Shown here: positions 1 through 1,384 of the stretch, piece by piece | Numbering within the stretch: position 1 is the stretch's first letter | Layout of the letters: every line of letters starts with the position of its first letter | NCBI RefSeq assembly: GCF_003334815.1 | Contig: NZ_QOWO01000098.1 | Reading direction: 5' to 3' (one strand) | Source: Escherichia coli | Lineage (GTDB): Bacteria; Pseudomonadota; Gammaproteobacteria; Enterobacterales; Enterobacteriaceae | Length of the DNA stretch: 1,384 nucleotides | The notes under the pieces: generated by a model | What the model was told of the DNA's origin: nothing | The model's input: the letters and a program-made list of their open reading frames with translations, nothing else | The model's database searches: none | Program-made: the position numbers and the translations under genes

Positions 1-43
1 GTATACAATCAGGAGAATAGGTAAAATCCATAATACTATAGCT

Positions 44-82
44 AAAAAAATATATACGGGGATCAGGCGTCTGTATGCCCGT
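44..82 (-). terminator. Weak candidate intrinsic terminator downstream of the FinO-like CDS
   Basis: On the minus-strand RNA, a short GC-containing stem (ACGGG 82-78 pairing with CCCGU 60-56; 5 bp around a 17-nt loop) is followed by AUAUAUUUUUUU (complement of 55-44). The stem is short, the loop is large, and the site lies about 105 nt past the stop codon, so confidence is low. Confidence 0.2.
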
Positions 83-187
83 TCATGTTTATTCAGGATG
101 AATAAAATCTTCTCCGCTTCTGAATCACACATAACATTCTCTTCCCATTTTTTCTGATACGTAATGTCCACCTGTTATCAGGAGTGT

Positions 188-790
188 TTATTGCCCAGAA
201 ATATTCTCCTGCTGTGCCTGCATCCTGAGCCACTTTTGTTCTAATGTCGCCAGTCTGCGACCGGCACTCTGTGCTTCAGAGTCTGAGACCTGCCCTTTGG
301 GGTGACCATCCAGGCCATAACGTGGGACGCCGGCGACAGCTGTCCGCTGCAGATATACGCGGCGGGATGTGATGCAGGACACTGCACAGAGCCATTCGTC
401 CATGGTCAGTTCTGTCTCCGGGTGTTCTGCCAGAAATGCTGAAATATCATTGTTTATGCCAATTTTCAGGGGAATAAATCCACCACCTTCAGCACGAAGA
501 TGAGGAAACAGGGCCTTTATTTTTTCCACGCACTCGTGAGTATACTCACGGGTCCAGTGGGAGGGACGTGGAAAACGGTGTCTTTTCTTTTTCTTCTTCC
601 TGGCTGGCGCTTCGGGGATATGTGTTTCGACGGCAGATGAATTTATTCCGGCGGGGGCTGATTCTGCCGTCTGTTCAGTAAATACAGGTGCGATAATATC
701 TGTTTTTTCGGATAAGGACGGTGGCGAAAAAGTACGACGTTTTTTCACCACAATGACGGGAGTTTTCCTTTCTTCCTGATTTTTTCCCAT
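188..790 (-). CDS. ProQ/FinO-family RNA-binding protein (FinO-domain RNA chaperone) with a basic N-terminal extension
   Basis: Complete 200-aa ORF with ATG start (complement of 788-790) and TAA stop (complement of 188-190). An in-frame stop lies just upstream (812-814 on the minus strand), so this is the first available start. A GAGG Shine-Dalgarno (complement of 796-799) sits 5 nt upstream of the ATG. The C-terminal region (about residues 86-190, roughly nt 221-535) carries motifs I recall as conserved in ProQ N-terminal domain and FinO: F-P-x-L, PLKIGI, T-S-x-x-x-YL, and G-x-x-R-Y-G-L-DG-x-P-x-G-x-V. The N-terminal ~85 residues are low-complexity and basic, including KKKKKRHR (nt 575-598), resembling the FinO N-terminal region. 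Family assignment is from memory of conserved motifs, not from a search. Confidence 0.85.
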   Translation of the reverse strand: MGKNQEERKTPVIVVKKRRTFSPPSLSEKTDIIAPVFTEQTAESAPAGINSSAVETHIPEAPARKKKKKRHRFPRPSHWTREYTHECVEKIKALFPHLRAEGGGFIPLKIGINNDISAFLAEHPETELTMDEWLCAVSCITSRRVYLQRTAVAGVPRYGLDGHPKGQVSDSEAQSAGRRLATLEQKWLRMQAQQENISGQ

Positions 791-795
791 AAATA

Positions 796-799
796 CCTC
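796..799 (-). promoter_or_regulatory. Shine-Dalgarno / ribosome-binding site (GAGG) for the FinO-like CDS
   Basis: The minus strand reads CGAGGTATTT-ATG; the GAGG core is 5 nt upstream of the start codon at 790. Confidence 0.5.
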
Positions 800-821: not shown

Positions 822-849
822 ATAATATCACAATTCATAAATTAGTAAA
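822..849 (-). promoter_or_regulatory. Candidate sigma70-type promoter for the FinO-like gene (minus-strand -10 TATTAT at 822-827, -35-like TTTACT at 844-849)
   Basis: Read on the minus strand, TATTAT matches TATAAT at 5 of 6 and TTTACT matches TTGACA at 4 of 6, with a 16-nt spacer. The predicted start would be around 814-815, giving a short leader that includes the GAGG ribosome-binding site. Weak and unverified. Confidence 0.2.
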
Positions 850-1143: not shown

Positions 1144-1384
1144 ATGCCAATGATACTTGTAAAGAAGAATCCCCGGGGCAAAGTGATTCGGGAGCTTAGC
1201 AGTGAGGAAGAGACTGCAGTAAAGACGGTCTGTGGACTGAAAAAGCCAGCAACCATGGCACTACATAACCTGGCCAATGATATTCTCCGGGAAATGCGTG
1301 AGTATGATGCATGGTTACAGTGTGACTGTATTCCGGGAGATTCGCCGGCCATGAATTTTGCTGCTCTTAAAAACAATACGGGTA
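1144..1384 (+). CDS. Hypothetical protein, 5' end only (continues beyond the window); function not recognised
   Basis: ATG at 1144 is preceded by AAGGAG (1128-1133) with a 10-nt spacer. The frame stays open for 80 codons to the window edge: MPMILVKKNPRGKVIRELSSEEETAVKTVCGLKKPATMALHNLANDILREMREYDAWLQCDCIPGDSPAMNFAALKNNTG. Composition is balanced and protein-like, unlike the overlapping antisense ORF. It was absent from the supplied ORF track, presumably because it has no stop in the window. An in-frame ATG at 1120 is an alternative start, but the Shine-Dalgarno is positioned for 1144. Confidence 0.55.
   Translation, partial: MPMILVKKNPRGKVIRELSSEEETAVKTVCGLKKPATMALHNLANDILREMREYDAWLQCDCIPGDSPAMNFAALKNNTG

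Follow-up and report, generated by a model that had tools for sequence, protein, structure and literature searches.

The DNA analysed here, called the window throughout, is a stretch of 1384 nt from Escherichia coli in which one complete gene lies between the beginnings of two others. The complete gene occupies 188..790 on the minus strand and encodes, from ATG to stop, a FinO-domain RNA chaperone of 200 residues with a match to PF04352, which is identified below as FopA (formerly YafB). Its ProQ/FinO domain spans residues 84-186 (233..541, minus strand) and is preceded by an N-terminal extension of residues 1-77 (560..790, minus strand), a basic region with predicted disorder. On the same strand as fopA and downstream of it, the first 44 codons of yafA (1..132, minus strand) run off the window, as do the first 80 codons of yagA (1144..1384, plus strand), which is divergent from fopA, at the other end. 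The 55-nt gap between yafA and fopA, read on the minus strand, is free of terminator-like sites; the two genes may thus be co-transcribed. The N-terminus of YafA resembles a membrane segment (IPVYIFLAIVLWILPILLIVY). A Shine–Dalgarno sequence, GAGG, can be read 6-9 nt upstream of the fopA ATG (796..799, minus strand), and a promoter-like site lies 5' of the gene at 822..849 on the same strand (TTTACT, 16 nt, TG-TATTAT). The latter is a consensus match and only a candidate; the window holds two promoter-like sites versus 3.0 expected from shuffling, i.e. not above expectation. The GC content is 35-37% in the flanks compared with 46-58% within fopA, in agreement with the AT-rich context noted in a preliminary description of this DNA.

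The fopA reading frame is not a chance ORF, because its product has more than 120 homologues in databases and is labelled ProQ/FINO family protein in more than 1000 plasmids, and because a near-identical protein has been seen experimentally: a protein identical at 199 of 200 positions was purified and was found by mass spectrometry (Gerovac et al., 2020, RNA 26:1448; PMC7491321). Other features of the window were assessed and set aside. An Rfam scan of the window at E <= 1, including the fopA–yagA intergenic region and the strand antisense to fopA, gave no match. A simple pattern scan placed terminator-like hairpins inside the fopA coding sequence at 559-588 and 597-618 on the plus strand and at 503-483 on the minus strand. 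The plus-strand hairpins (559-618), considered as the end of an antisense transcript, are most likely a by-product, as their T-runs are the complement of AAG/AAA lysine codons, and the minus-strand hairpin, considered as a terminator, falls within the coding sequence and is treated as an artefact of the pattern scan. The direct and inverted repeats of the window are all at most 23 nt, imperfect and scattered, and are treated as chance occurrences; a 46-aa ORF at 93-233 (minus strand) and other short ORFs overlapping fopA are mechanical reading frames that lack support.

The ORF at 188-790 is fopA, the gene for the FinO-domain RNA chaperone of the conjugative plasmids of the I complex (IncI1/IncK/IncB-O/IncZ). 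We draw this conclusion because the identity of the protein, the alignment of the window, the order of the genes and the residues Y146 and R157 all agree. The encoded protein is identical at 199 of 200 positions to FopA of Salmonella Typhimurium SL1344 plasmid pCol1B9 (WP_000517689.1; E = 2e-154), the sole difference being a proline at position 23, the majority residue of the family, where pCol1B9 FopA has a leucine. At the nucleotide level, the window aligns with positions 5526-6909 of pCol1B9 (NC_017718.1) with three mismatches in 1384 nt (99.8% identical), and the counterpart protein, annotated as ProQ/FINO, is encoded there at 5713-6315 on the minus strand. Window positions 1-132 (minus strand), once translated, match residue for residue the start of YafA of pCol1B9, a 164-aa protein (5163-5657 of the pCol1B9 stretch, L002), and the yagA annotated at 4520-5866 of the stretch from plasmid pEc631_1 (L001) corresponds to the window from 1144 on. 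The order yafA–fopA–yagA is therefore the same in the window and in pCol1B9, as in the published description, in which fopA sits between yafA and yagA (PMC7491321). The conserved FinO-domain residues reported for FopA are Tyr146 and Arg157 (PMC7491321), and the window protein has tyrosine and arginine at these positions. A 34-nt segment of the yafA 5' region (L002 5541-5574, window 16-49) recurs at L002 4784-4817 with 94% identity; the two copies lie about 750 bp apart in pCol1B9, beyond the next gene, and may be left over from an earlier rearrangement.

The gene is widespread and overwhelmingly plasmid-borne. With the whole window as query, megablast matched 1476 plasmids in PLSDB; for 706 of these the identity is >=99%. 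Most come from three genera, Escherichia with 1130, Salmonella with 208 and Shigella with 105 records. Many are 100% identical to the window over its full 1384 bases, with the ORF labelled "ProQ/FINO family protein" and yagA as its right neighbour. The preliminary description had expected a mobile element to carry the gene, which proved correct: 1368 of the 1476 matching plasmids are predicted to be conjugative (MOB-suite), and all three plasmids that we inspected are MOBP/MPF_I with I-complex replicons, CP040264 and CP027600 being typed as IncK2/Z and pCol1B9 as IncI-gamma/K1. Among complete E. coli genomes, the fopA coding sequence occurs in 1059 of 5426 (about one in five), at 1130 places, 1119 on plasmids and 11 on chromosomes. 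The 11 chromosomal places are presumably integrated plasmid segments. The window holds neither Inc nor repZ, the replication-control genes discussed below, and its plasmid of origin would, judging from identical database copies, be one of these plasmids. In pCol1B9, yafA encodes a protein of 164 aa; in pEc631_1, an IncK2/Z plasmid, a truncated form that starts at the same ATG has about 61 codons (L001 3323-3547, minus strand), so that the plasmid backbone diverges just to the left of the window.

The assignment of the protein as a FinO-domain RNA chaperone, already made in the preliminary description, is supported by profile, fold and published biochemistry. A search of Pfam-A gave a single and significant match, to PF04352 (ProQ/FINO; E = 2.4e-12, 47.2 bits), covering residues 84-186 and model positions 4-102 of 109. 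For structure prediction with AlphaFold2 (AF2), 23 full-length homologues with identities down to 52% were aligned. The resulting model, which is moderately confident (mean pLDDT 62.8, with values below 50 at residues 100-112), is built, from residue 81 up to the C-terminal end, of helices with two short strands, whereas residues 1-71 have pLDDT values below 50 and no predicted secondary structure; a FinO fold behind a disordered N-terminus had been anticipated. When this model was compared with the PDB using Foldseek, the top 21 matches were all FinO-domain structures, with modest E-values of 5.6e-3 to 7e-2, namely RocC with and without RNA, FinO (1DVO), Lpp1663 (6s10) and NMB1681 (3mw6). By sequence, the nearest PDB entries are the N-terminal domain of E. 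coli ProQ (5nb9; E = 1.5e-5, profile E = 4.8e-8) and Legionella RocC; FinO 1DVO was not found by the single-sequence or the profile search of the PDB at E <= 1 and was found by fold only. Matches of residues 110-164 to MHC class I proteins in the PDB profile search (E of about 2e-3) are spurious and receive no support from the fold search. No solved FopA–RNA structure was found in the sequence search of the PDB.

The residues that would contact RNA are fully conserved. G111, Y146 and R157, which line the 3'-nucleotide pocket, are invariant in the 23 homologues, and align with Gly52 (the turn glycine of KIGI), Tyr87 and Arg97 of RocC, the tyrosine and arginine also corresponding to Tyr70 and Arg80 of ProQ. 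In the RocC–RNA structure, Tyr87, Arg97 and the turn glycine grip the terminator hairpin at its 3'-terminal nucleotide (PMC9674577). The family-level profiles place the protein outside both named groups. The NCBIfam model for FinO (NF010317), with a cut-off of 136 bits, gives 25.7 bits in a weak alignment that spans residues 7-196, and the equivalog model for ProQ (NF003434), whose cut-off is 127 bits, gives 24.5. Since both scores are far under the cut-offs, FopA is, as judged from these profiles, an orthologue of neither FinO nor ProQ. The protein ends 14 residues past the FinO domain, and has neither the ProQ linker nor the ProQ C-terminal domain, whose absence had been pointed out at the outset. 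In agreement with this, FopA has been described as a distinct branch, with its own N-terminal domain containing two positive stretches and without the FinO N-terminal and ProQ C-terminal domains (PMC7491321).

The N-terminal extension is basic and of low complexity, as the preliminary description had stated, with both lysine/arginine runs at the residues given there. The first run, K16 K17 R18 R19, closes basic stretch 1 (residues 9-19, KTPVIVVKKRR; 734..766, minus strand), and the second, K65-K69 R70 H71 R72 F73 P74 R75 P76 (KKKKKRHRFPRP), falls in basic stretch 2 (residues 64-76, RKKKKKRHRFPRP; 563..601, minus strand). The net charge of residues 1-83 is +9, compared with -1 for residues 84-186, and in each homologue the extension contains 15-21 lysines and arginines versus 4-10 aspartates and glutamates. 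The two stretches are conserved in different ways. KTPVIVVKKRR is a near-invariant short motif, with a mean top-residue frequency of 0.93 versus 0.81 for the FinO domain, so that the motif is more conserved than the domain, and I13, V15, K16, K17 and R19 are invariant among the 23 homologues. Basic stretch 2, with a K/R fraction of 0.58 and a top-residue frequency of 0.63, keeps its charge rather than its sequence, and the linker between the stretches (residues 20-63) is variable, with indels. The resemblance to the N-terminus of FinO that had been suggested holds insofar as both are basic and disordered; it does not extend further, as the region is distinct from the FinO N-terminal domain (PMC7491321) and the protein scores under the FinO family cut-off. 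We infer that this disordered basic extension supplies the annealing activity of FopA.

The RNA partner of the pCol1B9 protein has been established experimentally. The RIP-seq reads of FopA were dominated by Inc, a cis-antisense RNA of about 70 nt directed against the leader of repZ on the same plasmid; repZ mRNA was co-enriched, and the chromosomal RNAs STnc1590, mgtM and STnc700 were also pulled down (PMC7491321). Purified FopA bound Inc, a repZ leader fragment and their complex alike (apparent KD, about 1 uM), accelerated Inc–repZ duplex formation approximately sevenfold and shielded Inc from RNase A (PMC7491321). RNA binding by the protein that is 199/200 identical to that of the window was thus observed by RIP-seq, EMSA and RNase footprinting, and the phylogenetic distributions of fopA and of Inc/repZ were found to be alike (PMC7491321). 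The same co-occurrence is seen in the plasmids inspected here, in which an Inc/repZ-type replicon accompanies fopA on one molecule. In pCol1B9, the Rfam family PK-repZ matches positions 294-442 of L002 (194.5 bits), with a CopA-like match on the antisense strand, next to the rep gene and 5.3 kb from fopA; in CP027600, whose copy of the window is 100% identical, PK-repZ matches positions 4461-4612 of the corresponding stretch (L003; 173.5 bits), again with an antisense CopA-like match, 3.6 kb from fopA. The preliminary description had supposed that the RNA target of the protein is unknown and probably encoded nearby. An antisense RNA is indeed encoded 3.6-5.3 kb away, but the target was already known to be Inc (PMC7491321). 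The role in conjugation that the FinO archetype would imply did not hold up, as the FopA system acts on replication through Inc/repZ instead.

The rep-leader/Inc stems of the two plasmids (L002 294-442 versus L003 4461-4612) differ by paired, apparently compensatory substitutions, while the loop GAACTTGGCGGAACG is unchanged. Given near-identical fopA windows and differing stems, one FopA allele serves different Inc alleles, of the IncI1 type and of the IncK2/Z type. The paired stem changes and the constant loop fit structure-based rather than sequence-based recognition.

From these observations we propose the following mechanism. The C-terminal FinO domain would grip structured RNA with a short 3' tail through the pocket formed by the glycine turn, Tyr146 and Arg157, with Inc, whose gene lies 3.6-5.3 kb from fopA on the plasmid, as the main ligand. 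FopA would protect Inc and speed the formation of the kissing complex and of the duplex with the repZ leader; this pairing would in turn block the pseudoknot and the leader-peptide translation that are needed for production of the RepZ initiator, and with less RepZ the plasmid copy number would be held down. We put the probability of this explanation, comprising the identity of the gene as fopA and the Inc chaperone mechanism, at roughly 0.9. The window's allele would behave like FopA of pCol1B9.

The last step of the mechanism deserves separate comment. According to a 2023 review, the pairing of Inc breaks the 5' pseudoknot required for repZ translation, so that Inc/FopA limits plasmid copy number, and pCol1B9 tunes its copy number and cuts its fitness cost via Inc/FopA, for which the 2020 paper is credited (PMC9977716). 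In the text of that paper (PMC7491321), however, the word 'deletion' occurs zero times, 'copy number' refers to the protein only, and there is no measurement of plasmid copy number; the step to copy number and fitness cost thus appears to have been inferred by the review. The case for repression of replication in vivo is therefore made by in vitro kinetics together with what the review states; a later primary study on the effect of FopA on copy number was not found in the literature searched. Copy number would fall in vivo through FopA.

The binding data bear on an alternative in which FopA acts as PcnR does, that is, mainly by binding the repY/repZ leader stem-loop and blocking translation of the leader peptide independently of the antisense RNA. 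Such a mode was raised as a possibility for the ProQ/FinO proteins of IncI1 and IncB/O plasmids (Yang et al., 2021, NAR 49:3981; PMC8053102), PcnR is phylogenetically near FopA (PMC9977716), and the affinity of FopA towards the 5'UTR fragment of repZ alone is about that for Inc, with repZ mRNA enriched in the co-immunoprecipitation. Yet Inc, not repZ, dominates the RIP-seq reads, and Inc–repZ pairing is measurably accelerated by FopA, which makes it unlikely that direct leader binding is the principal mode. The antisense-chaperone and direct-binding modes are compatible with one another, and direct binding is possible as an additional mode. We consider it quite improbable that FopA has instead been selected mainly for reprogramming host transcripts (STnc1590, the mgtM leader, STnc700/his leader), with Inc as a secondary ligand. 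Several chromosomal RNAs were enriched with log2 fold changes above 4, and FopA builds up late in stationary phase as well as under conditions that induce SPI-2 (PMC7491321); nevertheless, Inc far outweighs the other ligands, fopA and Inc/repZ share the same phylogenetic distribution, and an identical gene is found in plasmids of E. coli, Salmonella, Shigella and Klebsiella, hosts that differ in these chromosomal RNAs.

The two remaining explanations concern the identity of the gene itself. An IncF FinO orthologue that controls conjugation through a FinP/traJ-like antisense pair would share with this protein the common plasmid location, the similar length, and the order of a basic disordered N-terminal extension and a FinO domain, and the weak NCBIfam FinO alignment does cover residues 7-196. 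This reading is nonetheless very improbable: the NF010317 score of 25.7 bits compares with a cut-off of 136, 1DVO is absent from the sequence matches at E <= 1 and is matched by fold at 23% identity, Rfam scans of 12 kb of pCol1B9 and 6.5 kb of CP027600 contained no FinP/traJ element, and the ligand found by experiment is Inc (PMC7491321). Still further from plausible, with hardly any probability left to it, is the reading that the gene is proQ of the chromosome or one of its paralogues in core-genome synteny. Its point of departure is that the best PDB sequence match is E. coli ProQ 5nb9 (E = 1.5e-5; profile E = 4.8e-8). Against this stand the NF003434 score of 24.5 bits versus 127, the termination of the protein 14 residues after the domain without the ProQ linker or C-terminal domain, and the location of 1119 of the 1130 E. 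coli places on plasmids, which also bears out the preliminary view that the gene differs from chromosomal proQ.

Returning to FopA as a chaperone of Inc, the conservation of the N-terminal motif and the differing Inc alleles lead us to a tentative extension of the model, to which we would give somewhat less than an even chance. Here, KTPVIVVKKRR may be a separate functional module, and FopA may be a generic structure-reading chaperone that works in trans between co-resident I-complex plasmids. As such a module, the motif may be, for example, a strand-annealing element or a contact for a second partner. If action in trans is true, the copy number and the incompatibility of co-resident I-complex plasmids would be affected by FopA.

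A publication of 2020, followed by a review in 2023, covers fopA together with its domain, its unusual N-terminus, the RNA that it mainly binds and its activity as a chaperone. The practical relevance of the gene lies in its carriers, the IncI1/IncK/IncB-O plasmids by which ESBL and further resistance genes are spread. As a regulator that would keep such plasmids low-copy and low-cost, and one present in about one fifth of complete E. coli genomes, FopA is relevant to plasmid persistence.

Among known systems, the closest is FopA (YafB) of pCol1B9 itself, which agrees with the protein of the window in its 200 residues, Tyr146 and Arg157, its two N-terminal basic stretches and its yafA–fopA–yagA neighbourhood. 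The differences are L23 in place of P23 and the occurrence of the identical window also on plasmids typed as IncK2/Z, of which the two examined depart from pCol1B9 in an Inc stem altered by paired changes (CP027600) and in a truncated yafA (pEc631_1). PcnR of IncI2 plasmids is likewise a small plasmid-encoded protein of the ProQ/FinO family that restrains the replication of its own plasmid (PMC8053102), and is placed near FopA phylogenetically (PMC9977716); the likeness is drawn here from its published description. Unlike FopA, PcnR acts directly on the stem-loop of the repR leader and is antisense-independent (PMC8053102; PMC9977716), and its replicon is IncI2, whereas the inspected fopA plasmids are IncI-gamma/K1 or IncK2/Z. 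FinO of IncF plasmids (1DVO) shares the FinO fold with FopA (Foldseek probability 1.00, 23% identity over 121 columns) as well as a basic disordered N-terminal extension (PMC9977716), and is also a plasmid-encoded chaperone for a cis-antisense RNA pair. Its N-terminal region is nevertheless distinct (PMC7491321), and it serves FinP/traJ in conjugation rather than Inc/repZ in replication. ProQ of the E. coli/Salmonella chromosome (5nb9) and Legionella RocC (7rgs/7rgt/7rgu) have in common with FopA the FinO domain, including the residues of the 3'-nucleotide pocket, but both are chromosomally encoded, carry C-terminal extensions and act on trans-encoded or many RNAs, whereas in FopA the extension is N-terminal and the gene is plasmid-borne.
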